A stretch of 64,000 nucleotides of DNA, from IMG/VR virus record IMGVR_UViG_3300028883_000033, positions 1 to 64,000 of that record, one strand, 5' to 3'. Both the position numbers and the translations under genes were made by a program. Source of the stretch: a virus. Shown here piece after piece: positions 1 to 47,144 of this stretch. The notes under the pieces are model-generated. The model was not told where the DNA came from, made no database searches, and saw only the letters and a program-made list of their open reading frames with translations. The number at the start of each line of letters is the position of its first letter. Position 1 is the stretch's first letter.

Positions 1-1451
1 TAGTGTGGCGACCCATAGTCTTGCGATAGCGTATAGTCGTATGTTCCTGTTCCAGTTCGGTTTACTGTCAATCCGTTACTTGATGCAAGTGTGCCATTGG
101 CAAATGTTTTTGCATAGGCATAAACACCAAACCCTGGATTGCCATCATTGCCATCATCACCATCGGCACCTGCAGGTCCTTGTGGGCCCTGTGGTCCGGT
201 ATCCCCTTGTGGGCCTGCTGGTCCTTGGATGCCCTGAGGTCCTTGTGGTCCAGTGTCGCCTGTATCGCCTTTGGGTCCTTGTGGTCCAGTCGCACCATCT
301 AATCCATCCGCACCGTCAGCGCCGGCTGGGCCTTGAAGGCCTTGTGGACCAATAACACCTTGTGGTCCTTGTGGTCCGGTATCACCTTGTGGTCCTTGTG
401 GTCCAGTGTCGCCTGTATCGCCCTTGGGTCCTTGTGGTCCGGTGTCACCGGTATCCCCTTGTGGTCCTTGTGGGCCCTGTGGGCCTGTTGGTCCTTGTGG
501 CCCTTCTGGTCCTTGAACACCCTGAGCGCCTTCAACTGACATATCAGTGATGAATGTCCAGGAACCACCACTATACAAATACAAGCGACCATAGTCTGGA
601 TCGGATGGCGATAGTGTTCCTGCTACTAAGCCAAACTTACCTTCAGTTACTGAACCAGCCAGCAACTCTGCATCGCTGTTGTAAATCGTTTCAATATCAA
701 ACCCTTGGCCGGCTACGCCCTGTGGTCCCTGTGGTCCAGTGTCGCCGGTATCACCTGCAGGTCCTTGAATGCCCTGGATTCCTTGCGGTCCGGTGTCACC
801 CTGAATTCCTTGCGGACCTTCTGGACCTTGTGGTCCGGTGTCGCCTGTGTCGCCCTTAGGTCCTTGTGGTCCTTGAATTCCTTGGAGACCTTGTGGGCCA
901 GCAGCGCCTGTGTCGCCTTTTGGTCCTTGAAGTCCAGTTGGGCCTGTTGGACCTGTTGGGCCTTGCGGCCCGGTATCACCTGTGTCGCCTTTTGGACCAG
1001 CGACGCCTTGAGGACCCTGAATCCCTTGAATACCTTGAGGTCCTTGTGAACCAGTTGGGCCTTGCGGGCCAGTATCACCTTGTGGACCTTGTGGCCCTTG
1101 TGGACCTTGTGGACCAGTCGGTCCTGGTGTTAGTTCGATATCGTTCAGCTCATCCTGAATTTTTTCGGACGTCCACAATACTTCTGGGCTTGCTGGTGCA
1201 TTATCATCAACGATCTCATCGTCTTGCGCGCTACCTTCTTCAGGGCATTCCCATGCGGCAAGAAGACTATCCAGATATGTTTCTTCGGATGGTTGCAGCG
1301 CGGACACAAACCAAAAATCAGATGTTGTTGGTGTATTGTTGTCATTAATGATTTGCAGCAACTCGGGGGCGATGTTAGCATCTTCATTGATAGCTGCCAG
1401 CAACTTACCGTTACATGTCGTTACAAATGTTCTTTGTATTAGGATTGCCAT
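1..1451 (-). CDS. Collagen-like (Gly-X-Y) fibre/virion protein, 3' end truncated by the window edge; absent from the ORF track
   Basis: ATG at 1451 ([16 protein letters not shown]...); frame open to position 1; long [10 protein letters not shown] runs interrupted by a small globular segment ([10 protein letters not shown]...[14 protein letters not shown]). Confidence 0.9.
170..1130 (-). repeat. Collagen triplet repeats (9-nt periodicity, e.g. ggtccttgt on + strand)
   Basis: Direct reading; encodes G-P-Q / G-D-T triplets. Confidence 0.9.
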
Positions 1452-1461
1452 TTATTATACC

Positions 1462-4400
1462 TTATGGTGCATCTATAGATTGAATATTTAGTCGGCAGCC
1501 ATCAGCTAAAGTTACAAGAGCATCGGTTCCTGCAATACGTACTGACTGCACTCTAACCACGTCGCCGGATGTTAGATTCAATTTAAGAGTAGCACTCAAC
1601 GAATCTTCTGCGTTCGAGCCTGTTCTGTGGTAACCCCACGACCGCGAACCTGCCACCAAAGTACCATTCGATTGCAACTCAGTTTGCGATGTGGTACGAG
1701 AACCACCAACCGGAGAATCTAGGCTAACATCGTATGTAATTTCGTACCAGCCATCTTCATTAATTGTAATCTCGCTTCCACCACCAACAATATTGTGCGT
1801 AAACGCTGCATCTTGGCGGATAGATGTTCCAAAGTTAATCGTAGTTGGAGTTGTGGTAAACGTTTGTGTTACCCCACCGTTGTGCCGACTTAGATGCTGT
1901 TTGCCATCAACGGTAATTGTCGCTTCGGATGTTGGGGAACCAACGGCAGCCTGAACTTGAACTCCAACAAAATTAAGTGATGAAAAGTTTGTTCCGAGTG
2001 ATACGCCTTCATCTTGAACTTCAATTGTTGCACCAGTGCCTGGTTCGCCTTGTTCGCCTCTCGCTCCCGTTGCTTTTGCAACTGTGAGTAACGATCCGGC
2101 TTGGACAACTTCTGCTGTCGTTTGTGCCTGCACCTGCAACACTAACTGATCACCGGCAGACAATTCTGCAAAAAATACAGGAGAGTTTTGAACAATAACT
2201 TGGTTGGCGTCTGTGATGTCGCCTGTTAGGTGCTGACTTCCAGGAATTACCGCCGTACCACCAGCACCGTCCGTAACAACACGACCTGTAACTTCATCGT
2301 CCGATGGAATGGTGTAACTGATTTGATAGAGACCATCTTCCTTGATGTCAATAACTTGGGTGGTCGTATTGTTATGTTCGATTACGGTCGCGTTCGTTTC
2401 AACGTCCGTTAAGTTGAACGTTAGATCACCCCACGCAGGCGCGACAGGAATGGCGAGAGTGGTTGTTCTGCGAACTTGAACAACAGGTAGTCCGACCGAC
2501 GTCGAGTTCGCATCAAAATACGATTTGGTGATTAGCGATTGGTCGATAATGTTTGCATCATAACCAACAGGAACAACAACCGTGCCAGTTCCTTTCGGAA
2601 TCATTTCAATATCAATGTTCGTGTCAGTTCCAACAGCGACAATCTCTGGTCCGTTCCCAGTTGCACTGTTATCAACTTCTAGGTAGTTGACCGCATTTGC
2701 TACGGTTTGTAAGTATAAGATCGTTGCGCTATCGCCATCGTCGTAATCTGTAGCACCAAGCCATTCGCTATGGTCTGGGTAGATACGGACTTTCTCGTTG
2801 ATGACATCACCACCACCGTCTGTACGTCGACGAATAACGAAGTAATCTGACTCTTGTAGGAACATATCCCACCAAACAGTACCAGTGCCGGCAGCAACAT
2901 CAGCTGCAGGATCACCTGGGTTTGGTCCACCTGGACGGCCAGCACCGTCTACAGCAGATGCTGTACCTTTCAACCACTCAAGTGCTGGATCTTGGCCTGC
3001 GTCAGTAACATAACGCCAAATCCGCATGTTGCCGTTGGAGTCAATAACGTTTAATGTTCGCCCACCGCCAACAGCACCATCCGCCATATTCGCATCGGTG
3101 GCATTATCACCAATTGCTACACGACCATCACTATCTCGTACACGAAATTCTCGTCCAGGCGTACCAGTTACTGTAGCGTTACCTATAATATAGTCGCCAT
3201 CATCGGTGTTAATATAGTTCAATGATACCTGAGCACCATCAGCAATCAACTGTTTAGTTTTGCTGAGTGTGCCCTGAACTGTAATGGTTGCAGTGCCGTC
3301 TACTTGGTCAAAGTCTGTTGTGTTATCTAGGAACGTCGTTGCTAGGAAGTTCGATTGTGATGTATCGTTAGCAGACAAACCTAACGCCAATCCACGAACG
3401 CTACCACCATTGGCAAAGAAGGTTGACGCATCGTTATTAATAACACCTGTGCCTGCTGGGGTTGTTAAGTTACCTAAAATTTCATAGTTACTAACTTCAA
3501 CGCGAGCGCCACCATTATTATTAATAGCGGTGGTGTTACCTCTAAAGTTTACAACATCAGCATCAACAAATGTATTTGCACCGGTTACATTAACGCCTGT
3601 TACGTTATTTCTCGCAGCACCCGACGTCCAACGAATTCGTTGTAGTATGTTAACGGTGCCGTTGCCACCGCTAATTGCTATGTTTGCGTCTTCCATAGAA
3701 ACGTCATCTAAGAAGAACACACCATCGCCAGAGACTTGAATTAAGTTACTACCGGTGACGTCTTTATAATCTGTTCCGCCATTATCCTGACCACGAAGTG
3801 TCATTCGAGACAATGTAGGACCGTCCGTATTAACAGCCGAAGTCATCGTAAATAACGGTTGCCCGTTAATCAACGGTTCAACGAAGGTTGATACTGACTC
3901 CGAACCCTGTACCTGAACATAACGGCTTGTAGCACCGGTAACGTTAATCGGGTTATCTTCTTCGTAAATGCCGTCCAATACTTTAACTGTAGTTGGATTT
4001 GCGGCTGTAGCAACTGTTAGTGCTTCTTGTACACCTTTCTTAACCGTCAGGTATGGGTTGGAGAATGAACCATCACCGATTATGTCACTTCCGTTTTTCG
4101 TAACGTAGATAACGTTATCTGGACTAAACGCAACTTCTTCTTGAATACGAGAAAATGTCCAGAGCCCTAAGGATTCGTTGTAAATTAAAACGCCGGCGGT
4201 GCCGCTTAATTCAATTACAATTGTTTGTGCGCCGCCTGCTCCGTTGTCAATCAGCCCGCCCGTTTGTGCGTCAATCGTTAAATTGTTGGTTCCAAATGTA
4301 TTAATAGCATCTTGGAACGTTACAGAGTCACCATTGCTTGCTGGCGACGGCAATAGCATTGTTACCGGACCGGCCGATGTATCAATAGCAACAAATTCTG

Positions 4401-5961
4401 TACGTCGTGCTGTAAAGTTGGAAGAACGGTTTCTCCAACGTAGACTATCTGCTTCAATAACATTGACTTCAGCCGCACCCGACAGCTGAATTCGTTGTGC
4501 TGTTGGTGCAATGTCATTTACAATTAGGTTTAGTGTGCCGGCACCAGATACACTGTATGCCGTAGCACACTCAATAGTACCGACATTGATTGTCATGCTA
4601 CCATTGGTAATATCTAATGCAATACCATTGCCGATACCTGCACCTTGTTCTAAAATATGTGAAACACGGCCAACAATAATGCCGGAGTTAGTTTGTCGAT
4701 CGATTGCAGTACCGGTTCCGGTAATGTACATGTCCTCGACGTCCATGTGGATATGACCGGCGGATGTTGATTGATCTAATAGACCTGTGCCATTCTCTGC
4801 ATAAATCTGACGAACACGAACAATGAAAACAGATGTATCAGCAGTATTAACAATTGCATTTGCAGAACTAGTGGCACGAACAATTTCACCTGTTGCCCAA
4901 CCTGTAGCAGTTGATGTTGCTCCTTTGGAAATTACATTTCCTGTTGCTGCGGTAATTTCCTGGAATACAAACTCAGCATTATCTTCGATTACAACATTAC
5001 CAACAAATGATGAGTTAGGAGCTTTAACTAATACAAACGATGGAATCGTAAAACTTTCTGTGTATGTTCCTGCATCTTCACAATGAACCGAAATCTTATT
5101 AGATGCAGACGGAGTTAACGCTGAGGCAGCCGTTATTGCAGCGCCAAATGTTAGCTTTGGTTCTTCTGGCGTTGATCCGGTGTTTGTATCATTCCCATGC
5201 TTACCAACATATATTGTTTGGAGTCGAGGGGCGAAGGTTGCTCCACTAGAGAACAATAACACCCAACCACAATCTTTATTGTTTCCTGGTAAGGTGTTGC
5301 TATCATCCACAGAAACTGGTATGGTAAACCACCCAACATTATCAATAGGATCTCCTGTCAAAGTAAACAGTGCGGCAGAAGCTGCAGTATCCTTTTGTTG
5401 AATATATAATTTATTGCCAGCGTTAAGTGCGTTAATTATAGCACTTGCATCTACTCCTGATCTAGTATCATCATTGACGTAGATTTCTGTTACAGCACTT
5501 AAAACAGCACTATCAAATCTGAACCTACCGCTGCCTGGGTCTGCTTCAGTCGTGCTTGTACTAAATTTCCATTCGAGCTGAATGGATGCTCCAGCACCAA
5601 CTGTCGATGCTGGCACATTAGACCAGGTTCCAGCATTATATTGAAGAACCTCTCCATCCGTAAGGCTACCGAGGACGACATCTTCGAGTTGATCCAGGTC
5701 ACCGCCTTTGATACGATAATGAGTATCATTCATCGCAGCAACAGCATCTAGCGCCCGGGATAATGTCAACGGTGTCGCATCATCCAGAGGATCAAGAACA
5801 GCAACCGTCCCGGCTGTTATCGCAGCCGGGAGGTCTGTGCTCTGTGCCACTGAGACACCACGATCTTGTGTTAGATCGTACGTCTCATTTGGCGTTAGCA
5901 AGATACCGAGATCGTCGATGCTGACGTTTGCGGTATCAATGTTCTTTATAAAAAAAGCCAT
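1462..5961 (-). CDS. Large fibre/spike-like virion protein with two beta-helix-type segments and C-terminal C1q/BclA-like domains
   Basis: 1499 aa; two 'IYVxKxGxD..GS...PxLT' starts typical of beta-helix domains; two C-terminal 'DGxYxIxY...L.AGD' beta-sandwich units; N-terminal ~110 aa shared with 5968..9510. Confidence 0.65.
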   Translation of the reverse strand: MAFFIKNIDTANVSIDDLGILLTPNETYDLTQDRGVSVAQSTDLPAAITAGTVAVLDPLDDATPLTLSRALDAVAAMNDTHYRIKGGDLDQLEDVVLGSLTDGEVLQYNAGTWSNVPASTVGAGASIQLEWKFSTSTTEADPGSGRFRFDSAVLSAVTEIYVNDDTRSGVDASAIINALNAGNKLYIQQKDTAASAALFTLTGDPIDNVGWFTIPVSVDDSNTLPGNNKDCGWVLLFSSGATFAPRLQTIYVGKHGNDTNTGSTPEEPKLTFGAAITAASALTPSASNKISVHCEDAGTYTESFTIPSFVLVKAPNSSFVGNVVIEDNAEFVFQEITAATGNVISKGATSTATGWATGEIVRATSSANAIVNTADTSVFIVRVRQIYAENGTGLLDQSTSAGHIHMDVEDMYITGTGTAIDRQTNSGIIVGRVSHILEQGAGIGNGIALDITNGSMTINVGTIECATAYSVSGAGTLNLIVNDIAPTAQRIQLSGAAEVNVIEADSLRWRNRSSNFTARRTEFVAIDTSAGPVTMLLPSPASNGDSVTFQDAINTFGTNNLTIDAQTGGLIDNGAGGAQTIVIELSGTAGVLIYNESLGLWTFSRIQEEVAFSPDNVIYVTKNGSDIIGDGSFSNPYLTVKKGVQEALTVATAANPTTVKVLDGIYEEDNPINVTGATSRYVQVQGSESVSTFVEPLINGQPLFTMTSAVNTDGPTLSRMTLRGQDNGGTDYKDVTGSNLIQVSGDGVFFLDDVSMEDANIAISGGNGTVNILQRIRWTSGAARNNVTGVNVTGANTFVDADVVNFRGNTTAINNNGGARVEVSNYEILGNLTTPAGTGVINNDASTFFANGGSVRGLALGLSANDTSQSNFLATTFLDNTTDFDQVDGTATITVQGTLSKTKQLIADGAQVSLNYINTDDGDYIIGNATVTGTPGREFRVRDSDGRVAIGDNATDANMADGAVGGGRTLNVIDSNGNMRIWRYVTDAGQDPALEWLKGTASAVDGAGRPGGPNPGDPAADVAAGTGTVWWDMFLQESDYFVIRRRTDGGGDVINEKVRIYPDHSEWLGATDYDDGDSATILYLQTVANAVNYLEVDNSATGNGPEIVAVGTDTNIDIEMIPKGTGTVVVPVGYDANIIDQSLITKSYFDANSTSVGLPVVQVRRTTTLAIPVAPAWGDLTFNLTDVETNATVIEHNNTTTQVIDIKEDGLYQISYTIPSDDEVTGRVVTDGAGGTAVIPGSQHLTGDITDANQVIVQNSPVFFAELSAGDQLVLQVQAQTTAEVVQAGSLLTVAKATGARGEQGEPGTGATIEVQDEGVSLGTNFSSLNFVGVQVQAAVGSPTSEATITVDGKQHLSRHNGGVTQTFTTTPTTINFGTSIRQDAAFTHNIVGGGSEITINEDGWYEITYDVSLDSPVGGSRTTSQTELQSNGTLVAGSRSWGYHRTGSNAEDSLSATLKLNLTSGDVVRVQSVRIAGTDALVTLADGCRLNIQSIDAP

Positions 5962-5967
5962 TTGTTA

Positions 5968-8900
5968 TTATGCTCTCCAACGGAACCATAGTGTAACGAT
6001 TACATCACCAATTGTACCACCAGTTGATGCACCACGGAGACGTATTTTTTGTCCAGCGTTTACATCAACGTTCAGCGTACCATCAGCAACGTTTGCTTGA
6101 CCGCCACCGCCAGAAGGAATTGTAATCAGAGGAGCGGTTGCGGTACCATCTACATACAGATCAATTCCTTTCGCATTAGAGCTGTTTGCAGTATGAGCTG
6201 TCGCACGAACCAGGGTTGCGTTGTATGGAATAATGTAACCACTCGTCGCATCATTTGCACTACCAACTTCCATCCAGTCGTTGTTCCCCAAGTTATTCTC
6301 AGAGTATGCAACAGAGAACTCTGCTGTTGAGAGATCCTTACTACGAGCTGGATCTGTCATAAACAACTGGAATTCACCAGGAGAACCCGAACCGCCAATT
6401 GCTTTAACAGAAAGGCTACTCAGTCCGAGGATGTTTGCAACACCATCAGCAATTTCCTGTCCAGTGAACTTCTCGTTTGCTGTTGATGATGTGTTATAAC
6501 CAATGAACTGATCGGTTGCAGTCATATTTTCGCCAGCACTTGGAGTGCCGTCGATATCCAACTCGAGCGTTGGGTTACCTGCAATGCCATCACCATTTGT
6601 AACAGCAAGGCCATCTCCAGCGCCGGCACCTGCTACTTGAATGTCACGAGTTGCATACGAGTCAGGTGAACCACCAGTCTTAACAACAATACCAGAACCA
6701 GTTACACCAGAGACGACATCAAGTTCTTCAAAGATATCACCAAGTGAGTACGATACTGTGTTAGAACCATCACAAACAGGGATCAGACTATTAAAATCAA
6801 GGTTTGCAACATCGCCAGCGGACATACCACAAACATCAAGGCTGATTTCAAGCGTCGCAGGAGAACCAACCGTTGTTACGTTGATACCATTACCGCCAGT
6901 GATCGTGTTGGATACAAGTTCATTCAACGTTGTTGTGTAAACTGTACCACCTTCATTGATGATGATTTCCGTGTTGCCAGATGGTGTTGCACCAGGCGAG
7001 CCAGATGTTGTTGGTAGCGATGTGAAATCAAGACTGATTGTTAATGTCTCAGGATCATCGGCAGCGACTGTTGTGATTGCAGTACCACCAACAATTGCGA
7101 TTGTATCGCCTGCAACATCAGCAGCAGCTGAGCCAGAATCACCTGTAACCGTTCCAAACGCAGGAGCGGTAATTGCATCAAGATTTTCGTTTGTCCATCC
7201 TGCTGGCGAACCTGCACGATAAACAAGAACATCACCGTCAGCTGGTGCTGGCGAACCCTGAAGATTGACGTTGCCAATATCTTCAAGTTTGATGGCAGAG
7301 AGGTCTACATCAACTGTCAGAGTCTCGTTGCCACCATCGTTGTTCTGCGTCAGTGTTGTGTACGTTCCAGCAATCAACTTACCGTCTAGGTAACCAGGAG
7401 TGGTATCATTCGCAGAAACTTTGATCAGTTCGTCAGTATCAAGGCCAAGCTGATCGATAACTTCTTGTAGAGTAACCGTAGCCAGCGTTCCACCGTTGTT
7501 AATGACAATTTCATCTGTACCATCAACAACACTTGGAGAACCGCCCGCAGGAATCGTCGAGAAGTCAAGACTAATTGTCAGCGTATCTGTGGCTGCGCTA
7601 ACATTGACATTAATACCAGTGCCACCCGCAAGAGTTGCTGTATCTGTTGATGAGTCAGCAGTGATCTGTGCATCGCCAGTTGTGTTACCACCACCTGCCC
7701 AATTTTCGAAGCTATTGGTTGACGCGATTGCACCTGCGATGTCACTAACAGTGTAGTAAACGTTAGTATCAGTAGACGAATCCCAAACAGCAACACGGTC
7801 GACCGTATCAACCGCTGCGCGCAGCGGTAAGCCTTCGATGTCAAGACCAACAGTTGGGTTACCAGCGATACCATCACCGTTGAGAACTTCAAGACCATCA
7901 CGGTCACCTGCACCAGCTGCAACGATTGTGCGTGACGCATACGTGTCAGCGGCGGTGCGAACAACAAAGCCATCGCTCGTGATGTTGTTTACGACATCCA
8001 GAGCGTTGAATACTTCCTGGAACGTTGCACCGTATGTCTGAGTACCAGTTACGCCCTGTGCAGAACCGGTAACATCATGGAAAGCGATTCGGTCAGCCAA
8101 TGCTGGTGTTGCGGAAGCGACTTCTGTTGGGCCTAAATCAAGAGCGAACACAGTTCCTGTCTGTGCAATACCGATGTCACCAACGAACGCACCAGCGCCA
8201 GAGAACTGGACTGGAATGATTGGATCTTGACCGATAACGAAAGTGCTTGGGTCATCAACAGATAAAATCCATGCCGAGTTTTCGTAGGTGTTACCAGATT
8301 CGACGAATGTGTATGCGCCGGAAACTTCACTACTCTCGTCAGTACATGTGCAGCGAGTCAGTACCCACTGTGCAGGCGATCCTGTCCCGTCCGCGGTAAC
8401 GGTGTAGATACCGTTTTCTAGTGCTCGGTCAGGAGAACCTCCCTCCTGCCCTTTGACCAGAACACGATCACCAACAGATAGTGCAACACCATCAATCGTT
8501 AACTGGATTGGTGAACCGGTCGCAGTAGCAGATAGAGTTGAACCGATTTCTGATGGAGAACCTGATCCGCTAGCGTATGTCCATGTGCTACTGGTAATCG
8601 TATCAAGATCATCAGGCGTTGCAACATTGACGGACTGACGAGCCTTCAAACCAGCAGCAATATTATCAACATATGCTTTGTTAACGATATCATTGTTATT
8701 TGTAAACCCACCAGTTGGCGTTTCAATAAGAGCCGAAGCACCATCCACAATGCTGATGCCTGCACCAGATGCAATTGTCAATGTGCCTGAATCAAGAGTG
8801 TCGCCGGTATTGCGGAGGAAAACGTCATCAATAGAAAAGTTGACTGCGCCATCGCATGTGCCTGCACCATCAACATAATTTACAGTGATGTCAGTCTGAG

Positions 8901-9510
8901 AACCACCAGCAATCATTGCTCCTGAGATGTCTTGGACAGCCTCACAGAACCCAGGAATAGGTGTTGATGGACTGCCTGAACTGAATAGTGGAGTTGCTGT
9001 TACCTCGTCACTTCCATTACCAACCAGCACATAGACTGTATTATTTTCCCATGTTCCGCTTGGTGAACCAGATGGTGAAGGTGTGTTGACGTCTTCGAGA
9101 TCGCCAAGACGAATGTCACCAGCAATGTTGCTTGGAGAGTTTGGCTGCCATTCTGCATCGCCATCGTTATATGTTAAAACACAACCACCGGTGCATCCTG
9201 TTGTGTCGACATCCTCGAGTTGTGTTAAGGTACCACCACGAATCCTATAGTGAGGGTCGTTGTGAACTTCAACAATCTCTTGGCTAACCGCCGCGCTAAG
9301 TTCTGTCGTTCCATCAAGAGGATCGAGAACAACAATGTTTCCTGCAACAATTTGTGCAATGAGATCTGCACTAACTGCAATCTGTCGCGGATCTTCCGTG
9401 ATTAGATCATAATCAAATTGTGGGGGACTTCCAACACCAGCTGGGATTGTCAAACCTAAATCATTGATTGCAATCGCGCCGCTGGTCTTATTACGAATAA
9501 AAAAGCTCAT
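5968..9510 (-). CDS. Fibre/virion structural protein with internal repeats and 14 GSP motifs
   Basis: 1180 aa, G/T/S/D-rich; 'NKAYVD' and 'GDRVLVK.Q...ENGIY...WVLTR' motifs of phage fibre proteins; duplicated 'NGDGIAGNPT' unit. Confidence 0.7.
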   Translation of the reverse strand: MSFFIRNKTSGAIAINDLGLTIPAGVGSPPQFDYDLITEDPRQIAVSADLIAQIVAGNIVVLDPLDGTTELSAAVSQEIVEVHNDPHYRIRGGTLTQLEDVDTTGCTGGCVLTYNDGDAEWQPNSPSNIAGDIRLGDLEDVNTPSPSGSPSGTWENNTVYVLVGNGSDEVTATPLFSSGSPSTPIPGFCEAVQDISGAMIAGGSQTDITVNYVDGAGTCDGAVNFSIDDVFLRNTGDTLDSGTLTIASGAGISIVDGASALIETPTGGFTNNNDIVNKAYVDNIAAGLKARQSVNVATPDDLDTITSSTWTYASGSGSPSEIGSTLSATATGSPIQLTIDGVALSVGDRVLVKGQEGGSPDRALENGIYTVTADGTGSPAQWVLTRCTCTDESSEVSGAYTFVESGNTYENSAWILSVDDPSTFVIGQDPIIPVQFSGAGAFVGDIGIAQTGTVFALDLGPTEVASATPALADRIAFHDVTGSAQGVTGTQTYGATFQEVFNALDVVNNITSDGFVVRTAADTYASRTIVAAGAGDRDGLEVLNGDGIAGNPTVGLDIEGLPLRAAVDTVDRVAVWDSSTDTNVYYTVSDIAGAIASTNSFENWAGGGNTTGDAQITADSSTDTATLAGGTGINVNVSAATDTLTISLDFSTIPAGGSPSVVDGTDEIVINNGGTLATVTLQEVIDQLGLDTDELIKVSANDTTPGYLDGKLIAGTYTTLTQNNDGGNETLTVDVDLSAIKLEDIGNVNLQGSPAPADGDVLVYRAGSPAGWTNENLDAITAPAFGTVTGDSGSAAADVAGDTIAIVGGTAITTVAADDPETLTISLDFTSLPTTSGSPGATPSGNTEIIINEGGTVYTTTLNELVSNTITGGNGINVTTVGSPATLEISLDVCGMSAGDVANLDFNSLIPVCDGSNTVSYSLGDIFEELDVVSGVTGSGIVVKTGGSPDSYATRDIQVAGAGAGDGLAVTNGDGIAGNPTLELDIDGTPSAGENMTATDQFIGYNTSSTANEKFTGQEIADGVANILGLSSLSVKAIGGSGSPGEFQLFMTDPARSKDLSTAEFSVAYSENNLGNNDWMEVGSANDATSGYIIPYNATLVRATAHTANSSNAKGIDLYVDGTATAPLITIPSGGGGQANVADGTLNVDVNAGQKIRLRGASTGGTIGDVIVTLWFRWRA

Positions 9511-9511
9511 T

Positions 9512-10027
9512 TTAGACTCTCCATTTCAGTGTAAGTTTGACAACCGTGTCTTGAATTGCTCCGCCTGTTCCCTGTTGGGCTTGTAGACGAATTTTGTCGC
9601 CACGGGCAAAGTCTATATCTATAGATGTATTTATGAATGTTGAGTTGGATCCGCCAGTCAGTGACCCTATGGAGCCGAAGTCAGTATTGTTAACAAAAAG
9701 GTGAATATTTTTTTCGTTTGATCCAGTGTCTTCGCAGTGGCATGTCGCAAACACCACAGTGCCGTCGAAGTCGGCAATAAATCCCGTATCCGCATCAACG
9801 GCATTCCCCACTTCAATCCAATCACCAGCGTTCAGCCGGTTTTCTGAAAACTGAAGAACATGATCAGCTACTGATAATCTCTTTCCAGCAGGGGGCGAAC
9901 CAACACCCCTTGTCGTATCGACGAATGTTAGTGTTGGTTGTCCGTTGATAATCGAGATACTGAGATCGCCTGGCGTTGAGCCTCCCGATCCGCACTGATT
10001 TGGTCTAGTTAAAATAAGGCCTGTCAT
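9512..10027 (-). CDS. Virion protein paralogous to the C-terminal domain of 5968..9510
   Basis: FSENRLNAGDWIEVGNAVDADTGF vs YSENNLGNNDWMEVGSANDATSGY; both end KIRL...GG.I.D..V.L...WR. Confidence 0.75.
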   Translation of the reverse strand: MTGLILTRPNQCGSGGSTPGDLSISIINGQPTLTFVDTTRGVGSPPAGKRLSVADHVLQFSENRLNAGDWIEVGNAVDADTGFIADFDGTVVFATCHCEDTGSNEKNIHLFVNNTDFGSIGSLTGGSNSTFINTSIDIDFARGDKIRLQAQQGTGGAIQDTVVKLTLKWRV

Positions 10028-10464: not shown

Positions 10465-11166
10465 ATGGCTGAAATCATCATTAGCTCGTATTTTGAAGAC
10501 AATAGCGGGCCAATTACAGGACTGACACCGACAGTTCGCATCTGGGATGTTGGAACTGTTAGTGATGAGTTGGTGGTTGGTGCGACTTGTGGAACTGGAC
10601 AGGCAACTGACGGTGTAATGATTGAAGTAGAAGACTGTGGGTCTCCTGCTGGTGAACAGGATGGTTTCTATCGTTTTGTTTTTACGGATACCATTGGATA
10701 TAATCCTACAAAAACTTATGTTGTCCGGGTAGACGGTGGCGTATCGCTTGCATCTAATTGTAGGTATCAAACAAGCAAAATTACTCCTGCTGACGCATTG
10801 TCTGCCGCGGATGTGGCAGACGCTGTGTGGGATGAACCTAAAGCAGATCACCTCGTCCCTGGTTCTACAGGTGAGGCGTTATCACAGACAAAAGCCGATA
10901 CAGCAGATATCATCGACAAGCTATATCTCGACGCTGATAGTGTTCTCGAAGTTGTTCAACTGCTTCTCAAACTAGAGGCTGGAAGAACGAAAATCGACCC
11001 AACCACCAACACTCTCACAGTATATGACGAGGACTGCACTACAGTTCTCCGTGTGTTTAATCTATACGATAGCACTGGTGCGCCTAGTGTCATCGATGTG
11101 TGTGAGCGTAAACCTGTAACTAAAGGTCCAAGCGACAACACTACTATTACTGATACCTGCCCGTAA
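10465..11166 (+). CDS. Putative virion structural protein (Cys-rich, one GSP)
   Basis: 233 aa; 'ADVADAVWDEP...H..PGSTGEAL' motif seen in phage fibre-associated proteins; late promoter upstream. Confidence 0.6.
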   Translation: MAEIIISSYFEDNSGPITGLTPTVRIWDVGTVSDELVVGATCGTGQATDGVMIEVEDCGSPAGEQDGFYRFVFTDTIGYNPTKTYVVRVDGGVSLASNCRYQTSKITPADALSAADVADAVWDEPKADHLVPGSTGEALSQTKADTADIIDKLYLDADSVLEVVQLLLKLEAGRTKIDPTTNTLTVYDEDCTTVLRVFNLYDSTGAPSVIDVCERKPVTKGPSDNTTITDTCP

Positions 11167-21493: not shown

Positions 21494-23293
21494 TTAGAAC
21501 GTGAAATCCGCTCCAGTGGAGAGAATTCGGATTGGAATGTAGATGAATTCAGCAGCTTTGACAGGCTTTAATGCCACATCAATGTACATCTCATTACGGT
21601 CAATTCGATCAGGTGTGTTATTGGATTCATCACAAACTGTGGCGAAGTCATATAGACCACGCTTAACAACCAGATCACCCAAGAAGTTATCTACAACTGC
21701 TTTCAAGTTATCACGAGTTAACTGGTCGTTTGGCTCGAAGACGAAGCTCAGAGTATTACGACGAAGCTGACGCTTGATGTACTTGATCAGTCGAGACACG
21801 TTTACACGGTCCATCGCGCTTGCAGCAGATGCAGAGGTCTTCTGGCCCCAAACAACAAAACCGTTACCTGGGAAGAATACCAGTGGGTTAATGTTACCAG
21901 CAGCGTTGTTGGTATCATATAGAGCATCACGCTGTCCTGCGTTTAGGGCAGTAGCGACGAAGTCTGTTGGTCCACCCAACTGGCCTGAAACATAACCGAG
22001 GTTAGAAACACCAGTAATAAGACCACGACGTAGACCTGCTGGCGCGAACCAGAGATACGATGCATTATCACTAAATGCGTACGTACGCAGAGCAATACCA
22101 GATGGAGAAACTACAACATTCTTACCATCAAGGTTAGATGCTAGACCCCATGGGTAGTAGTATGCAACGTGAACCGAACGCTGACGAGCAGTTGTTGCAG
22201 CCCAACCAGTTGCTGGGTTTGAAATCTCATCAGGAGTTTTATCGGCTGGAGTATCAGCGATAACCAGAGCTTCTTCCTGAATATCAACAGACAGCGCCAA
22301 CATTTCATCCGCAACTTCATGGTATCCTGGGCAGAGGATCAAATTGTAGTCGAATGTTTCAGAACGCAGCTGACGACCTGCCTCGGAACCAGCATTGATT
22401 TGTGCCTGTAGTGCTGTAGTGATAGCAACACGGCGTGCTGCATCGTTAGCACCAAGACTTGTTAGGTTTAGGAACTCACGAGTCCATTTGAAATCATCGC
22501 CTAGAGCAACCAACAGGTCGCCACCTTCCTGTGCAGTAAACTCACCAGCAACAGTTCCACCACCTGGGTAAGATGGGTATGTGCTGATATAGCCAGCGAC
22601 ACGGGTCAGACCGACATAGTAGCCAGTTGGTACTTGGCTGAAGCCATTACCGAAGATTTCAAGACCTGGTAATGTTCCAGCAGCAGTCTGGTCAAGCATG
22701 AACTCATCGTGAACGTTTTTGAAGTTGAACTGACCGGTGATAGGATCCATCCATGGGCATGCTTCTTCTGCAAGAGCTGCGAACTCAGAACCAGTGACGG
22801 TGATCTTGTAACCTGGGCTTGATGGAATCAAACCATTCGCGTCATTGTATTCGTTGATGAATTGGTTGATTAGGTTTTCCAGAACAACTTTCGATTCTAG
22901 GATCTTGGTATCCCAGTAGTCCTGCAAGTCATCAAAATCATCGTTCAAGTTAACGTTTGCTCGAACAACATAAGCACGTGCCCCAACACCCAAGAACTGG
23001 TTCAGTGCGAACAATCCATATTCGTTTCGTGCATCACCATGAAACTGAGCGCCGGTGCCTTCATCCTCTAAAAAGCGAGGACTACCATACAGCTGAACAC
23101 TCTGTGCGATAGATGTTACGGTGCGAACCACATCGTACTCATAAGTGCCTTCTGCTTCAGACACATTATCTGGCTGGAGCTTTTCATCAGCTGTAGCAAT
23201 GAAAATTAGAGGTACAGTCGGGGCAGCAGCCGGGATGTAAAAACTTTCATCCGTTACTGTTACGCTGACTCCTGGGCTTACCAAAGTTGCCAT
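21494..23293 (-). CDS. Contractile tail sheath protein (gp18-like)
   Basis: LVSPGVSV N-terminus; WFAPAG..RG; INP; WGQKT; DRVNVSRL; FEPND; CDESNNTP.RIDRN; KPVKAAEFI. Confidence 0.97.
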   Translation of the reverse strand: MATLVSPGVSVTVTDESFYIPAAAPTVPLIFIATADEKLQPDNVSEAEGTYEYDVVRTVTSIAQSVQLYGSPRFLEDEGTGAQFHGDARNEYGLFALNQFLGVGARAYVVRANVNLNDDFDDLQDYWDTKILESKVVLENLINQFINEYNDANGLIPSSPGYKITVTGSEFAALAEEACPWMDPITGQFNFKNVHDEFMLDQTAAGTLPGLEIFGNGFSQVPTGYYVGLTRVAGYISTYPSYPGGGTVAGEFTAQEGGDLLVALGDDFKWTREFLNLTSLGANDAARRVAITTALQAQINAGSEAGRQLRSETFDYNLILCPGYHEVADEMLALSVDIQEEALVIADTPADKTPDEISNPATGWAATTARQRSVHVAYYYPWGLASNLDGKNVVVSPSGIALRTYAFSDNASYLWFAPAGLRRGLITGVSNLGYVSGQLGGPTDFVATALNAGQRDALYDTNNAAGNINPLVFFPGNGFVVWGQKTSASAASAMDRVNVSRLIKYIKRQLRRNTLSFVFEPNDQLTRDNLKAVVDNFLGDLVVKRGLYDFATVCDESNNTPDRIDRNEMYIDVALKPVKAAEFIYIPIRILSTGADFTF

Positions 23294-26215: not shown

Positions 26216-29200
26216 TTACCCCATTATGAACGAAGAATGCATACCAATATCTTCTGGATCGTTTGCTACGTAATCTTCGATTTCCATGTCCAGTTCTTCC
26301 TTCAACTCAGTCGCTTTAGTCATTAGGTCTGCAGCATTCAGAGAAACACCACCACCCGCTCCAGGCAACGAGGCGTACTTACCACGAATCTGTGCTAGAG
26401 TTTCCATCGCCTTCATCAATGAGTACCGTTTGATCCAGGTGCGTACCCAACGATCTTTGAGGATTGATTGTTCCGTTCGCTCGATAGTAACATCAAGAAG
26501 GATTCGTTCCGGCACGGTAAAGGATTGATAAAAACTCAACACGCGCTCACTCTCATTCCAATGATACACAAGACGAGTAGCAAACAAATGTTCTAACTGT
26601 TCAACATACTCACTAACCAAATGGTAACTGAGTAGGTCAAACGTTCCCATGTTATACAAGTGCTGAAGAACAATCTGGCCGTACACCCCCGCACCATGAG
26701 CCGAACTCAGGAAGGCGGATGTAAAACGATACGCAGACATAACAGTTACTATTTTATGGAACCCGCATGTTCTATCTGTTAGTTTGTAGTGTTGGTATCC
26801 TGGCTGGATATCCAGGAAGAAAGCACTACGTTGATATGCAATGGATGTTCTCTGTCGAATCGTCTCCAATGCAAAATCAATGGCTTCGTTAATTTGTTTT
26901 GGTGTCAGTTCAACTTCAACGACTGGATATCCAAGCTGCGAGCGGACCCAATCAGCAATCTGACGACGCTCGTCCGGAGATCCATCATCACCAACACCCA
27001 ACTGCTCGTATGTTGGTAGTTCATGAACACCATCATCACCATACGAGTGTCGAAGGAGCCCACCAGGTGGAACTAGGTAACTGAACAGGAACGTATCAGG
27101 CCCGACCGTCGTTGGCGGAACATTGACGTTCTCATAATCTTTGTAGTGACAGCATACGGTGTCAAGACCGGCATCACCTGTCGCTATACCTTCATACACT
27201 GCATAATTGGTTCCTTCCGGAATCAAGATCATGATCATCTTGTTGCTACCGGTTCCCGTTGTGTGCAGCGTCAAGTTACCGTTACTATCAATAATAGCTT
27301 CTGCTATAGGAGTAGCTGGAACCCACTCGCCCTGATTAGACAGAGGATCATCAACACGGTCTGGATTACGAACCCACTCCATCAACACATCGTTGGTTGA
27401 ATCGTACCAAACATCTCCATGTTTTGGGTAGTATGGAGATGTTGAAAATGGTACCGCAACCCATGAGGCACCGATGCGTTGGTAAAGAGCATCGTTCGTT
27501 GAGTCGTACCAGAACGTGCCTGCAGGAATAATTGTAGGATCAACCTCACTGTCGACAGGGTCAATAGCAACCCACGCAGCTGGACTTCCACTCCATACGA
27601 ACCACGTATTAGTAGCAGTATTGTGCCATGCGGTTCCTAAAATCGGTTGAGTCGGATCAGTTGGGTATTCGATATGTGTCACATCTAACCAACGAACACC
27701 ATCCCAACGTTTCATCTCTTTAGTGTCAGGGTTGTACCACAACTCACCATAATCAAGAACTGGTTGTGAATAAGGATCTGTAGCTGATTGCGTGAATTCG
27801 CCTACTTCATCCCACTCCCCATTAACGGAGTCCCACTTGTACAAACGATCAGTAGTATTATCCCACCACAGGTCGCAAGATTCGGTGTTACGAGGATCTT
27901 CTGGCCAGATAAGAACAGGAACATCGACCCACCCAATAGGAGAACCGGTGTCACTCCATTCTTTCAATTCTTCTGTGTTAGGATTGTACCACAGATCCCC
28001 ATCTACCAGCGTTGAGCCGCCAATGGATGGATCTGCAATAGAGTTGATGAACGTAACGGCGGTGAAGTCGAGAGGCGACCCTCCATACACCAGCAATTCC
28101 TCTGTACTATCATTGTACCAGTATGTTCCAACGTTTAGTGTATTCGGTGGAGTATCCCACTGAATAGCATATGTGGTTTCCCACTGTTCGAAGTCATGGT
28201 TCCAGTGATTGAGGACTACGTTAGTTTCATCGTACCAGTAAACACTACAATTAGGAACTGGTTTTGTTAACGGATCTATATTCTGAACATGAACGACTTC
28301 TTCACACCACGTTTCTGTGCAGTACCGATAAGCATTAGTTCCATCAAACCAGAAGTCATCCCCCATCGTTAGGTTAGTCGGATCCTCAACATATCCAATA
28401 ACACTAACAGGATTCCAACTTAGAGGAGATCCAGTGTATAGATTAAGAGCGCCTGTGACTGGGTTATGCCAATAGCTTCCTGACACAACAGCCGATGGGT
28501 CGGTTGGTTCGATTAGCGCATCGACAGGTTGATTGTTTGTTCCATCCCATTGATAGAGAGTTTCACCATCCCAGTAATAACGACCCTGATCGGGTGGTAC
28601 TGGAGAATGCGGAGGATTTCCTGACTGCGCAATAGCGCTGTTGATAGCATCAAGAAGATCCTGGTACGTTCCGAGGTTTGTACCATCTTCTGAAACTTTT
28701 ACAATACGGCTTGTGCTTTGGTTAGGGAAATTCGTATTAACTTCGAATTCAAATTCGTAAGTCATTCCCGGAACAAGACCGGTGCCGTCGGTTGGCAGAG
28801 CTCCGTTTCCGTTATTGAGCACAACGGTTTGAGATGCTGGTGTTCCTGGATCAGTTACATTGCCAAAATCAGCTGAGTATGCACGTTGACCGTCCCGATG
28901 GTAACGCCCCTGACAATCAACAGCGTATCCAACCACGAAGTAGCTTGTTCGTGGTTTAAGTCCATGAATAACAAAGCTCGTTGTTAGTTGCTCGCCTCGA
29001 GATTTCTGTTCGCCTTCATAGAAAGCACCAACAACAAGAGCGCCGTTGATTCTATCGCCAACGTGAACATCAGAATCTGCTTGAGCGTCAGCTTCATATA
29101 TTGTTCCGTCTTGAGGAGCATGATTTATAGTTAGTGGAGCTTCACTTAAAAGAACAACCATGCCACAGTATGCACCCGGGCTATCAGAAGCACAGCCAAG

Positions 29201-29335
29201 CATTGGCGCTGGAATATTCCATCGCACCGTTCCTTGTCCTGTTTGAGGGTCACCTGGAGAAAACGTTAGAGCGATAGTATCGCCTTCATGTTTAATTTGT
29301 TCAGGTGTATCGTTTGGCGAGTCAAATGCGCCCAT
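26216..29335 (-). CDS. Neck protein (gp13-like) with a ~780-aa N-terminal extension of Trp-rich repeats
   Basis: C-terminal LGYPVVEVELT..Q...AI, WIKRYS, RGKYASLPGAGGGVSLN; repeated 'G.(L/Y)WYN...L..W.G..W' units. Confidence 0.85.
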   Translation of the reverse strand: MGAFDSPNDTPEQIKHEGDTIALTFSPGDPQTGQGTVRWNIPAPMLGCASDSPGAYCGMVVLLSEAPLTINHAPQDGTIYEADAQADSDVHVGDRINGALVVGAFYEGEQKSRGEQLTTSFVIHGLKPRTSYFVVGYAVDCQGRYHRDGQRAYSADFGNVTDPGTPASQTVVLNNGNGALPTDGTGLVPGMTYEFEFEVNTNFPNQSTSRIVKVSEDGTNLGTYQDLLDAINSAIAQSGNPPHSPVPPDQGRYYWDGETLYQWDGTNNQPVDALIEPTDPSAVVSGSYWHNPVTGALNLYTGSPLSWNPVSVIGYVEDPTNLTMGDDFWFDGTNAYRYCTETWCEEVVHVQNIDPLTKPVPNCSVYWYDETNVVLNHWNHDFEQWETTYAIQWDTPPNTLNVGTYWYNDSTEELLVYGGSPLDFTAVTFINSIADPSIGGSTLVDGDLWYNPNTEELKEWSDTGSPIGWVDVPVLIWPEDPRNTESCDLWWDNTTDRLYKWDSVNGEWDEVGEFTQSATDPYSQPVLDYGELWYNPDTKEMKRWDGVRWLDVTHIEYPTDPTQPILGTAWHNTATNTWFVWSGSPAAWVAIDPVDSEVDPTIIPAGTFWYDSTNDALYQRIGASWVAVPFSTSPYYPKHGDVWYDSTNDVLMEWVRNPDRVDDPLSNQGEWVPATPIAEAIIDSNGNLTLHTTGTGSNKMIMILIPEGTNYAVYEGIATGDAGLDTVCCHYKDYENVNVPPTTVGPDTFLFSYLVPPGGLLRHSYGDDGVHELPTYEQLGVGDDGSPDERRQIADWVRSQLGYPVVEVELTPKQINEAIDFALETIRQRTSIAYQRSAFFLDIQPGYQHYKLTDRTCGFHKIVTVMSAYRFTSAFLSSAHGAGVYGQIVLQHLYNMGTFDLLSYHLVSEYVEQLEHLFATRLVYHWNESERVLSFYQSFTVPERILLDVTIERTEQSILKDRWVRTWIKRYSLMKAMETLAQIRGKYASLPGAGGGVSLNAADLMTKATELKEELDMEIEDYVANDPEDIGMHSSFIMG

Positions 29336-29888: not shown

Positions 29889-31400
29889 TTAACGGAGATC
29901 CAAAGCCTGAACCTTGATCTTACCGTAGTAGTCGGAGCTGTTACCCAGAGATGTTTCAGTGTTAACGAACACCGCTTTACCGTAGCGAGTCATCAGAGAG
30001 ACAACTGGCTGGAAGGTAGTTGGGTGAACAACAACACCGGAGCTCATCAGTGGGATGTATGGGCAGTAGAAGTAACCGGTATCAGTTTCACCGTTACCGC
30101 CTTTGTAACCCATCAGCATAACATCGTCTACAGAACCAGCAGGAGAACCGCCGTCGCCCAGTGCAATACCTGCACCAGACTGGTTCCACAAGTGGCTGTA
30201 AACTTTGATTGTGCCGTTCAGTGTACCAACCATCTGGGTGTTGTTAGGACCTTTGAAGGAACCTTCAACAGCTGGTGCGAAGACAGACTTAGCAGCAGAC
30301 TGCAGAACAGATACCATCAGAGGAGAAACAACCATGAAGTTAGCTGCACCACGACGTGTCTTACGAGCGATCTCGTTAGCAACACGGTTGACGATTACGC
30401 CCAGGTTAGCCAGACGGTCACCAACGTATGCTGGGGTGTAGTTACCACCAGTACCGTAAGCACCACCAGCAGCACCGTCGAAGGTTTCAACAGTACCAGC
30501 CAGAGCGAACAGGTCAGAGATGATTTCGTAGTCGATTTCCTGAACGATCTCAGCTGACAGAGCCTGAGTCATTTCAGATTCCAGATCCAGACCGTGCTGT
30601 GCATTCAGATCCTGCATAGCCTCGATGGTCCAACCAGCCTGCAGCTTACGAGAACCTGCTTCAACTGCCTGAGACACAACGTCCAGAGTCATCTTACGAC
30701 CACCGTTACCTTCCATGTAGGAACCGGAACCACCACGCAGGGAACCAGCTACTGACTTGAAGTAGTTAGCAGCACGGTCACCAGAAGAGTTGGTGCCAAG
30801 CTCACCAGCAGAACCTGGGTCAGCATGTGGGCCAAAGCCGTAAATGCCGTTACCTGGGTCACCAGCGGTATCGTGCGCAGGCATGCTTGATGGCCATGCA
30901 CGGCCTTCAGCAGTTGCTGCAGCGATATCTGGGTTCTTTTCAGAACCAACACCGATACCAGAAGAACCTGGAGGTGCGTCAGCGCCGATGCTAGAGCTGT
31001 AGAAGTGACGGATTGGTGAAACGTTACCGAAAACTTCATCGTTAGGTGCTACGTTGTTTGGAGCGCCGTATGGGTTGCGAGTAGCATCACCAGTAACAGC
31101 TTCAGCGTAACGATAACGAAGTGTGTATGCCAGGCCAACAGGACCGGACATTGGCTGTACGCCAACCAGTTCGGTAGCGATTGTGCCAGGAATGATACGA
31201 CGAATCATCGGGATCAGGATCTTACGGAAACCTGCGATGTCGTGCGCCTGTGTAACGCCTGCGCCGCCTGCTGCACTTTCAGAGATCAATTGATTCTTCT
31301 GGTTTTCCAGCAGAGGAGCGACGATTTCTTGTTTACGTGCGTCCAAACCTTCAAGCAGTGCGCCTTTAGTTTCGGACCAGTTTTCAAACATGTCGTTCAT
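29889..31400 (-). CDS. Major capsid protein (gp23-like)
   Basis: LLENQ, LIPMIRR, GVQPMSGPVGL, SRKLQA.WT.E..QDL.A.HG.D.E, GYKG, FYCPYIPL, MTRYG. Confidence 0.98.
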   Translation of the reverse strand: MNDMFENWSETKGALLEGLDARKQEIVAPLLENQKNQLISESAAGGAGVTQAHDIAGFRKILIPMIRRIIPGTIATELVGVQPMSGPVGLAYTLRYRYAEAVTGDATRNPYGAPNNVAPNDEVFGNVSPIRHFYSSSIGADAPPGSSGIGVGSEKNPDIAAATAEGRAWPSSMPAHDTAGDPGNGIYGFGPHADPGSAGELGTNSSGDRAANYFKSVAGSLRGGSGSYMEGNGGRKMTLDVVSQAVEAGSRKLQAGWTIEAMQDLNAQHGLDLESEMTQALSAEIVQEIDYEIISDLFALAGTVETFDGAAGGAYGTGGNYTPAYVGDRLANLGVIVNRVANEIARKTRRGAANFMVVSPLMVSVLQSAAKSVFAPAVEGSFKGPNNTQMVGTLNGTIKVYSHLWNQSGAGIALGDGGSPAGSVDDVMLMGYKGGNGETDTGYFYCPYIPLMSSGVVVHPTTFQPVVSLMTRYGKAVFVNTETSLGNSSDYYGKIKVQALDLR

Positions 31401-46514: not shown

Positions 46515-47144
46515 ATGACGACCCTGAAAAAGTTCCTTGAGAACCCCCAAGTTGATTTAACAGCAGATAGAGTTGCTGTGTTTACGTTCGGTCGTTTCAA
46601 CCCGCCAACGAAAGGGCACGGTCAGTTAATCGAAACTGTGATTTCGTTGTCTAAAGGCGGCGATCACTTCATTTTTCCCTCGCATACTGTAGACAAACCG
46701 CTAAAGAAGACAGGCCGTATCAACCCTGATACTAGCAAAAACCCATTGCCTTTTGACGTGAAAGTCGCATTCATGCGTCAATTGTTCCCACTAGCAAACA
46801 TCGTAGAGGATGGACCGACAAATCCATGGAATGTTCCGGAGTGGCTAGGAGAGCAGGGATACACGGATATAAAGATGGTTGTGGGTGCTGATCAGATCGA
46901 CGATTTCTCGCGCCTGGTCGAATCCGCATCAAAATACTTCAATTCGTTTGAAATTGTAAGTGCTGGAATCAGAAATCCTGATGCATCGGATCTTACAGGA
47001 ATGAGTGCGACTAAAGCACGATCAGCGGCCCTTTTGGAGGACATTGGAAAGTTCCGCGTTGCCACCGGCTGGTCGGGAGAGGTGGCTGAAAAGCTGATGG
47101 AAGCAACACGAATAAGCATGGGAGCTGAGATACGTGGCCGATAA
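46515..47144 (+). CDS. Cytidylyltransferase-like nucleotidyltransferase
   Basis: FTFGRFNPPTKGH, KNPL, MVVGAD, SAG.R.PD, MSATKAR. Confidence 0.85.
   Translation: MTTLKKFLENPQVDLTADRVAVFTFGRFNPPTKGHGQLIETVISLSKGGDHFIFPSHTVDKPLKKTGRINPDTSKNPLPFDVKVAFMRQLFPLANIVEDGPTNPWNVPEWLGEQGYTDIKMVVGADQIDDFSRLVESASKYFNSFEIVSAGIRNPDASDLTGMSATKARSAALLEDIGKFRVATGWSGEVAEKLMEATRISMGAEIRGR

Follow-up and report, generated by a model that had tools for sequence, protein, structure and literature searches.

Why should a single tail-fibre protein of a phage carry the same three residues, Gly-Ser-Pro (GSP), at fourteen separate places? The question is raised by P0001, a tail-fibre protein of 1180 residues encoded at 5968..9510 on the minus strand of a 64,000-nucleotide stretch of DNA from an uncultured jumbo phage (IMG/VR record IMGVR_UViG_3300028883_000033, positions 1 to 64,000), referred to here as the window. 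The window is part of one viral contig of 147,644 bp, G000, with a CheckV completeness of 43%. G000 represents a T4-like myovirus, whose major capsid protein (MCP) shares 60% identity with the MCP of the Xanthomonas jumbo phage XacN1 and 69-70% with that of G001 (IMGVR_UViG_3300021514_000002), a complete genome of 363.5 kb. Residues 276-455 of P0001 match PHROG families 2647 and 17264, a domain that many phages have in their tail-fibre and decoration proteins. Across G000 and its relatives, GSP has been gained repeatedly in unrelated positions and proteins, in some phages only, and we infer that it is recognised by a separate factor.

The excess of GSP in P0001 is specific. The 14 copies compare with 0.53 expected from composition, an excess of about 26-fold (Poisson p ~1e-15), and the highest count among 20,000 shuffles of the protein was 5. 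A first-order Markov model gives an expectation of 3.8. GSP is by far the commonest tripeptide over expectation in this protein. Gly precedes 14 of the 16 Ser-Pro dipeptides but only one of the nine Thr-Pro dipeptides. A preliminary description of the window, made from the sequence alone, had reported 14 copies where about one was expected; that observation is confirmed and is stronger than was stated.

GSP is also enriched over the whole contig (45 copies versus 9.9 expected), where it ranks first among all tripeptides for over-representation. The enrichment is confined to virion genes: open reading frames (ORFs) of the virion module contain 44 copies versus 6.4 expected, whereas the 102 other ORFs contain one versus 3.5 expected. 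The split between structural and non-structural genes suspected in the preliminary description is thus borne out. The nucleotide pattern GGN-(TCN/AGY)-CCN is found 45 times in the coding frame versus 2 and 7 times in the other two frames, codon choice at the G000 sites tracks the background, and all synonymous codons occur. In P0001, Gly is encoded by GGT, GGA or GGC, Ser by TCT, TCA, TCG or AGT, that is, by both serine families, and Pro by CCA, CCT or CCC. Since the enrichment is restricted to the coding frame and the codons follow the background, the signal resides at the protein level. A DNA-level repeat or inserted element, already doubted in the preliminary description because the codons vary, is ruled out by the same evidence and by the fact that the inserted loops have only GSP in common. 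As a separate observation, TCG accounts for 27% of the Ser codons at GSP sites of G000, versus 14% across these proteins as a whole, and for 21% versus 8% in G001, an enrichment of about two-fold.

To place G000 among its relatives, every tripeptide was scored as observed over expected across whole related viral contigs. The genomes fall into two classes. In GSP-rich genomes (G000, G001, G005, G006 and G011) GSP is enriched 3.2-5.6-fold and is the top-ranking tripeptide, whereas in GSP-neutral genomes (G002, G003, G004, G007, G008, G009, G012, RsoM2USA and XacN1) the ratio is 0.5-1.4. Observed and expected counts are as follows.

G000, rich: 45 GSP, 9.9 expected
G001 (363.5 kb, complete), rich: 87 GSP, 15.6 expected
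G005, rich: 18 GSP, 3.6 expected
G006, rich: 23 GSP, 7.1 expected
G011, rich: 17 GSP, 3.1 expected
G002 (291.7 kb, 90% complete), neutral: 12 GSP, 14.5 expected
G003, neutral: 13 GSP, 12.3 expected
G004, neutral: 9 GSP, 12.2 expected
RsoM2USA (Ralstonia phage), neutral: 14 GSP, 17.5 expected
XacN1, neutral: 22 GSP, 24.2 expected

When the five rich genomes are pooled, GSP occurs 190 times versus 39 expected, and all other tripeptides of the form xSP, GxP or GSx, including GTP, ASP and SSP, stay at about one-fold. In a tree of four core proteins the rich genomes are scattered, and rich G001 is sister to neutral G007, with MCPs 79% identical. Each of the five large fibre proteins of G007 contains 0-2 GSP. 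The difference extends to vertically inherited orthologues, which contain 48 GSP versus 11.9 expected in rich genomes and 25 versus 23.1 in neutral ones. In the baseplate protein of ~3,600 residues, 21 of the 28 alignment columns with GSP are private to one rich genome, and many of these private columns fall in short private insertions that are alike in GSP alone. Homologues of P0001 are bimodal as well: among 181, 104 have no GSP, about 25 contain 7-24 per 1000 residues, and the maximum is 40 in one protein of 1645 residues. Spread of the motif by internal repeats and fibre-module exchange alone was considered and found insufficient, because vertically inherited orthologues of the sheath, the gp13-like protein, the MCP and the baseplate protein gain GSP in rich genomes only. 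Given the repeated gains and the exactness of the motif, turn preference, repeat inheritance and fibre-module exchange cannot explain all these features together.

The virion proteins of G000 that carry GSP outside P0001 include the following; the further copies listed in the preliminary description are all real.

6..14, minus strand: C-terminal GSP (DYGSPH) of the collagen-like fibre (3..1451)
1933..1941, minus strand: single GSP of the 1499-residue fibre (1462..5961)
9893..9901, minus strand: single GSP of the 171-residue ORF 9512..10027
10639..10647, plus strand: GSP of the 233-residue ORF 10465..11166
21494..23293, minus strand: tail sheath with one GSP (2-4 in rich relatives, 0-1 in neutral relatives)
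26216..29335, minus strand: gp13-like neck protein (PHROG 211) with five GSP, four of them in turns of the repeated hairpin xLxxW.G(S/T)xWxxI
30141..30149, minus strand: single GSP of the MCP (gene 29889..31400), in a variable loop
55615..66546, plus strand: baseplate/tail protein of 3643 residues with three GSP, the first (57496..57504) within a 10-residue insertion private to G000

Two of these proteins illustrate the pattern of gain. The closest relative of the gp13-like protein (68% identical) has only the fifth site, in the conserved sequence DG(S/T)PDERR, and relatives have DGT, NGS or TP-containing turns where G000 has the four hairpin GSP. The MCP contains exactly one GSP in five of five rich genomes, placed in either of two variable loops, and none in the nine neutral genomes. 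In a broader MCP alignment (29889..31400 with loci L007-L086), about 20 of 82 relatives bear GSP in these two loops; where close relatives are GSP-neutral, the loop is retained with GAP or AGT in that place. None of the many GXY collagen triplets of the collagen-like fibre is GSP, and the copies elsewhere are isolated rather than tandem, which sets them apart from collagen-like GXY repeats.

Where in the protein do the copies lie? P0001 was modelled with AlphaFold2 from 63 homologues; the model is beta-rich, with a mean predicted local distance difference test score (pLDDT) of 69. According to this model, 14 of 14 sites are in coil, other non-regular structure or hairpin turns. Four of them (377, 882, 947 and 1042) are tight turns joining two beta-strands, and site 358 abuts a short helix. 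Seven (27, 148, 179, 377, 657, 947 and 1042) fall in columns that are gaps in GSP-poor homologues (28/34 to 38/39 sequences), and so at least seven of the 14 are loop insertions. The sites, all on the minus strand, are the following.

9424..9432, minus strand: site 1, residues 27-29; coil ahead of beta-strand 31-35; gaps in 33 of 36 GSP-poor homologues
9061..9069, minus strand: site 2, residues 148-150; low-confidence linker; insertion, gaps in 14 of 14 GSP-poor homologues
8968..8976, minus strand: site 3, residues 179-181; coil; insertion, gaps in 36 of 37 GSP-poor homologues
8554..8562, minus strand: site 4, residues 317-319; coil between beta-strands; substitution (GGT or GGP in GSP-poor homologues); common to the paralogous module of the fibre 100700..104743
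8509..8517, minus strand: site 5, residues 332-334; coil past beta-strand 325-329; private to P0001 (0 of 17 aligned GSP-rich homologues)
8431..8439, minus strand: site 6, residues 358-360; directly ahead of helix 362-365 (N-cap-like); common to the paralogue 100700..104743
8374..8382, minus strand: site 7, residues 377-379; turn of the beta-hairpin formed by strands 367-374 and 381-386, with xxW after it; insertion relative to 28 of 34 GSP-poor homologues
7534..7542, minus strand: site 8, residues 657-659; coil; insertion, gaps in 36 of 36 GSP-poor homologues
7249..7257, minus strand: site 9, residues 752-754; within the widespread fibre motif L.D.G.V...SP...GD.L.Y; common to the paralogue 75882..79580
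7204..7212, minus strand: site 10, residues 767-769; hairpin turn vLvY..GSP..W; same hairpin in the gp13-like protein and in 71384..74539
6994..7002, minus strand: site 11, residues 837-839; loop of an internal repeat, low confidence; twin of site 8
6859..6867, minus strand: site 12, residues 882-884; hairpin turn between strands 876-881 and 886-891
6664..6672, minus strand: site 13, residues 947-949; turn of the hairpin formed by strands 941-946 and 951-955; no GSP in its twin repeat near residue 520; insertion relative to 32 of 37 GSP-poor homologues
6379..6387, minus strand: site 14, residues 1042-1044; turn of the hairpin formed by strands 1033-1038 and 1046-1053; insertion relative to 38 of 39 GSP-poor homologues

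The preliminary description had regarded the copies as loop insertions. This holds for the seven sites named above, residue 317 being a substitution, and the examples it gave, the twin repeats VVRTAADTY and VVKTGGSPDSY and an N-terminal comparison with 1462..5961, are present in the translations. In the flanks of the 45 G000 sites, Val and Leu are over-represented at 4-5 residues before the motif, and Trp shows a ten-fold enrichment at the third residue past Pro, which together describe a strand-GSP-xx-W hairpin. Arg, Asp and Glu are under-represented in the flanks, and the apolar residues Val, Leu, Ile and Ala are over-represented. Since some GSP sites are common to paralogous modules of three fibre genes, not all 45 copies in G000 are independent events.

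What, then, maintains GSP in these proteins? Motif specificity, virion restriction, loop location, all-or-none distribution and repeated gains all point to a trans-acting factor, and our preferred though tentative explanation is that this factor is a phage-encoded cytoplasmic O-glycosylation island. GSP would be a short linear motif, placed where virion proteins expose loops and hairpin turns because it is recognised by a factor that some phages have and others lack, and the glycosylation system would place a sugar on the Ser of the motif. Each new GSP loop would add one glycan to the particle surface, making the coat tunable through small insertions.

The candidate machinery is an island of ~9 kb located at ~43.2-52.5 kb of G001. 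It would comprise Maf/MptE-like, family 8 glycosyltransferase (GT8)-like and Kdo (3-deoxy-D-manno-octulosonate)-transferase-like proteins, a radical SAM/SPASM enzyme and methyltransferases. Two proteins are MptE/Maf-like (PF01973), of which one exceeds the Pfam cut-off, as a weak match (37.4 bits versus 34.6). They are accompanied by one GT8-like transferase, four methyltransferases and the radical SAM/SPASM enzyme, whose closest solved relatives are the sugar-modifying BtrN, BlsE and DesII. The Atlas neighbours of a 266-residue island protein include capsule-synthesis (Kdo-transferase family) and GT8-fused clusters; they are the sole lead to its function, since its AlphaFold2 model (pLDDT 56) is too poor for a fold search. 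KdsA and KdsB make CMP-Kdo (cytidine monophosphate-Kdo). G001 encodes genuine versions of both (437 and 221 bits, each above its equivalog cut-off), at ~58 kb and ~177 kb. The island is far from the virion genes (44-52 kb versus 208-341 kb).

The island is tied to GSP by its distribution: it is missing in G002 and recurs both in G018 and in the unrelated GSP-rich phages G019 and G020. In GSP-neutral G002 the conserved flanking genes are 570 bp apart, versus 9.3 kb in G001, and the island is deleted exactly at the syntenic site. In G018 the radical SAM enzyme is 85% identical to that of G001. That island-bearing G018 and GSP-rich L227 are one genome is not supported: the two derive from one sample and match in GC content, yet have no overlapping DNA. 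G019 and G020 are phages of ~67 kb (87-89% complete) with a different portal family, no match to G000 and almost nothing else in common with G001. GSP is in excess in their structural blocks (14 versus 1.8 expected, p 8e-9, and 12 versus 1.3, p 1e-8), and outside these blocks GSP occurs at 2 versus 2.2 and 2 versus 3.3. With 35 of 97 ORFs in common at 54% identity, G019 and G020 are relatives and add a single further lineage. Neither encodes a CMP-sugar synthetase, and they would need that of the host.

A more detailed version of this explanation is possible but doubtful. Here GSP would be a true three-residue sequon of a cytoplasmic Maf-type Ser-O-glycosyltransferase, which would attach a Kdo-like sugar tailored by the radical SAM enzyme and the methyltransferases. 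The enzymes would travel on the mobile ~9-kb island, the glycan would coat fibres, baseplate, neck, sheath and capsid through GSP loops, and the motif would decay after loss of the island.

Several points weigh against assigning GSP to the island. The co-occurrence comes from few independent lineages, namely the jumbo clade and G019/G020. Homologues of the GT8-like and Maf-like island genes of G001 occur in XacN1, which has no radical SAM enzyme and is nevertheless GSP-neutral. Among small viral contigs, 49 have homologues of the island radical SAM enzyme (40-55% identity), and their flanks contain 8 GSP versus 16 expected; this count is uninformative because virion genes are rarely on these contigs. 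The island could also make a glycan for another target. Maf enzymes have been described as lacking a defined sequon and as accepting Thr also (PMC11339370). Finally, G000 itself has no match to Maf (PF01973), GT2, CMP-sugar synthetase (PF02348), PF00793, sulfotransferase or radical SAM families, and no glycosyltransferase family was found in the window or on the rest of the contig. G000 maps only onto 231-363 kb of G001, and the island, KdsA and KdsB of G001 lie outside that part. The absence of a writer from a 43% complete contig without the region syntenic to the island is thus uninformative. A 2OG-Fe(II)-like gene of G000 (89968..90588) was rejected as a writer, since its homologues occur in rich and neutral genomes without discrimination. 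In XacN1, a cultured phage, other tripeptides stand out (AP018399.1): Thr-Pro-Thr occurs 325 times versus 43.6 expected and PTP 175 times versus 28.4, and Thr-Pro-Thr may be a different acceptor motif.

The preliminary description had proposed GSP as an exposed site that either is modified, by O-glycosylation or phosphorylation, or serves for docking, and had placed any writer probably outside the window. This interpretation is partly supported. The recognition-type patterns and the candidate island in relatives agree with it, and glycosylation stands as a putative assignment. No writer was found on G000, and the writer would therefore have to lie outside this contig too; phosphorylation by the kinase PrkA is weakly supported at best.

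The glycosylation explanation has partial precedents. Maf enzymes perform cytoplasmic O-glycosylation of surface-exposed Ser/Thr with apolar neighbours, and Kdo transfer by them is possible (PMC11339370; bioRxiv 10.1101/2020.06.03.131540). The sequon of PglB is D/E-X-N-X-S/T and that of PglL is WPAAASAP (PMC11339370). As in flagellin O-glycosylation by Maf (motility accessory factor, PF01973), which uses CMP-activated nonulosonic acids or Kdo, the candidate acceptor Ser of P0001 is predicted to lie in exposed loops with apolar flanks, on a subunit of an extracellular assembly, and the relatives G001, G018, G019 and G020 encode Maf/MptE-like proteins, G001 also KdsA and KdsB. Here, however, the motif is exactly G-S-P, the targets are phage virion proteins instead of flagellin, the Maf-like matches are weak and there is none on G000. 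As with PglB and PglL, a short motif would mark the acceptor residue and could be transplanted into loops; those enzymes are periplasmic, use lipid-linked donors and have other motifs, whereas virion proteins assemble in the cytoplasm. Freeman et al. are said to have reported in 2023 that mycobacteriophage virions are glycosylated by phage-encoded glycosyltransferases, with capsid and tail proteins sugar-coated. The enzymes of that system are unrelated to those considered here, their genes adjoin structural genes, and no tripeptide sequon extends over many virion proteins. Literature searches for Gly-Ser-Pro, or GSP, as a motif of phages or of glycosylation returned nothing relevant. If the glycosylation explanation is true, GSP would be the first defined acceptor motif for phage virion glycosylation and the first for a Maf-type enzyme, and glycosites would be readable straight from phage genomes. 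It would account for gain and loss of a sugar coat on exposed virion surfaces over short evolutionary time and would offer a minimal tag for cytoplasmic glyco-engineering. Chemistry aside, the virion-restricted, all-or-none excess of GSP is a simple genomic marker that divides similar jumbo phages into two classes.

Could GSP instead be nothing but a favoured loop-forming sequence in fast-evolving, beta-rich virion proteins, with Gly in positive phi and Ser-Pro forming a turn or helix N-cap? Nothing would then bind or modify it, and lineage differences would reflect contingency or a demand such as loop stability or protease resistance. We consider this rather unlikely. The sites do occur in hairpin turns that have an aromatic residue at the third position past Pro (Trp ten-fold), at strand starts and once as the helix cap DG(S/T)PDERR kept across relatives, GSP-poor relatives have DGT, NGS, GTG or TP-containing loops in the same turns, some sites are inherited via paralogous modules, and related structural regions show a mild baseline excess of GSP (83 versus 54). 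Ser-Pro turns and helix N-caps (S/T-P-x-x), however, tolerate Thr, Asp or Asn and varied preceding residues, and they are found in all protein classes. A structural preference should thus accept GTP, GDP, GNP, ASP and SSP, but only GSP is enriched, and the motif is present in at least four different structural contexts. Such a preference also leaves unexplained the all-or-none split among sister genomes with the same folds, such as G001 and G007, the missing excess in non-virion proteins, and the recurrence in an unrelated lineage with only the enzyme island in common.

Docking, the third possibility, is improbable. GSP would then be a recognition site for a protein, such as a decoration protein, a chaperone of assembly, or a prolyl isomerase acting on Ser-Pro bonds while large beta-rich virion proteins fold. 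The specificity, virion restriction and bimodality that fit a sequon fit docking equally, and two small proteins (G000 125303..125653 and 136348..136659) are common only to the rich genomes G000, G001 and G006. These are, however, in a block co-inherited with the PrkA module, and their distribution may be phylogenetic. No candidate binder with any supporting feature was found, three residues offer little to dock on, and the co-occurrence with the enzyme island is more specific.

Phosphorylation of the Ser by a phage PrkA/YeaG-type kinase is less probable again and, in our view, quite remote. The PrkA/YeaG-YeaH (DUF444)-SpoVR/YcgB module is intact on the minus strand of G000 at 130510..135380 (L004:6510-11380), with matches to PF08298 and PF06798, PF04285, and PF04293. 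It is 67-79% identical among G000, the rich genomes G001 and G006, and G010 (76-79% in the comparison that set rich against neutral genomes), and is absent from the neutral genomes G002 (90% complete), G003, G004 and XacN1. RsoM2USA has the module (54% identity) yet is GSP-neutral (14 versus 17.5), so it is not sufficient, and G019 and G020 are GSP-rich without any match to it, so it is not necessary either. PrkA does follow the motif within the crown clade, where its distribution fits shared ancestry of one genomic block. The PrkA trio is a widespread bacterial stress module, and we know of no proline-directed specificity for it. In these phages the module is more conserved than the capsid protein.

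Modification of GSP loops by radical SAM peptide-modifying enzymes encoded within the fibre module of relatives can be dismissed as scarcely credible: in G001, four SPASM-type genes in tandem lie between fibre genes that are rich in GSP, and GSP is also abundant next to cassettes of at least 52% identity (21 versus 1.5, 17 versus 1.0 and 4 versus 0.67), but a cassette at 40-42% identity adjoins fibres that are not GSP-rich (2 versus 1.1 and 2 versus 0.9), and the cassette always follows a fibre-like protein with a Cys-Thr repeat tail, its obvious substrate, which it tracks instead of GSP. The cassette is not present on the G000 contig, and a metagenome scan with the profile of the fibre-module radical SAM enzymes returned distant radical SAMs only. 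The probability left over from these explanations goes to causes we have not thought of.

Several minor observations concern the same genomes. The cassette loci are G001 213041..220904, L220:3311-11119, L221:3738-11167 and L223:2861-11149, and the C-terminus of the fibre-like protein reads CGCTCTCTC...CNC.H.KC. This protein looks like a core of the ribosomally synthesized and post-translationally modified peptide (RiPP) style fused to a tail fibre, and its tail is probably cross-linked by the four radical SAM enzymes. In the window, one further gene heads the baseplate operon:

46515..47144, plus strand: cytidylyltransferase-like gene, a weak assignment (PF01467 at 23 bits; TIGR00125 below cut-off)

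Its only homologue is in GSP-rich G006 (40% identity), and a link to GSP is speculative. Just downstream of the G001 fibre module that is syntenic to the window fibres lies a sulfotransferase-family gene (342691..343464; PF13469/PF00685), whose counterpart in G000 is cut off by the start of the contig. G001-specific genes absent from GSP-neutral relatives include those for a GroEL-type chaperonin, NadA, NAD kinase, five DNA methylases and a PagL-like lipid A deacylase. G001 also encodes, at 140704..145267 and nearby, Cas5fv-like, Cas3-like (HD and helicase) and Csy4 genes, a CRISPR-Cas set resembling type I-F. The G000 contig ends, on the minus strand (144851..147075; L005:851-3075), with a caspase-like Peptidase_C14 gene beside genes for two further proteins, one with a concanavalin-like lectin domain and one with an F5/8 type C (discoidin) domain.

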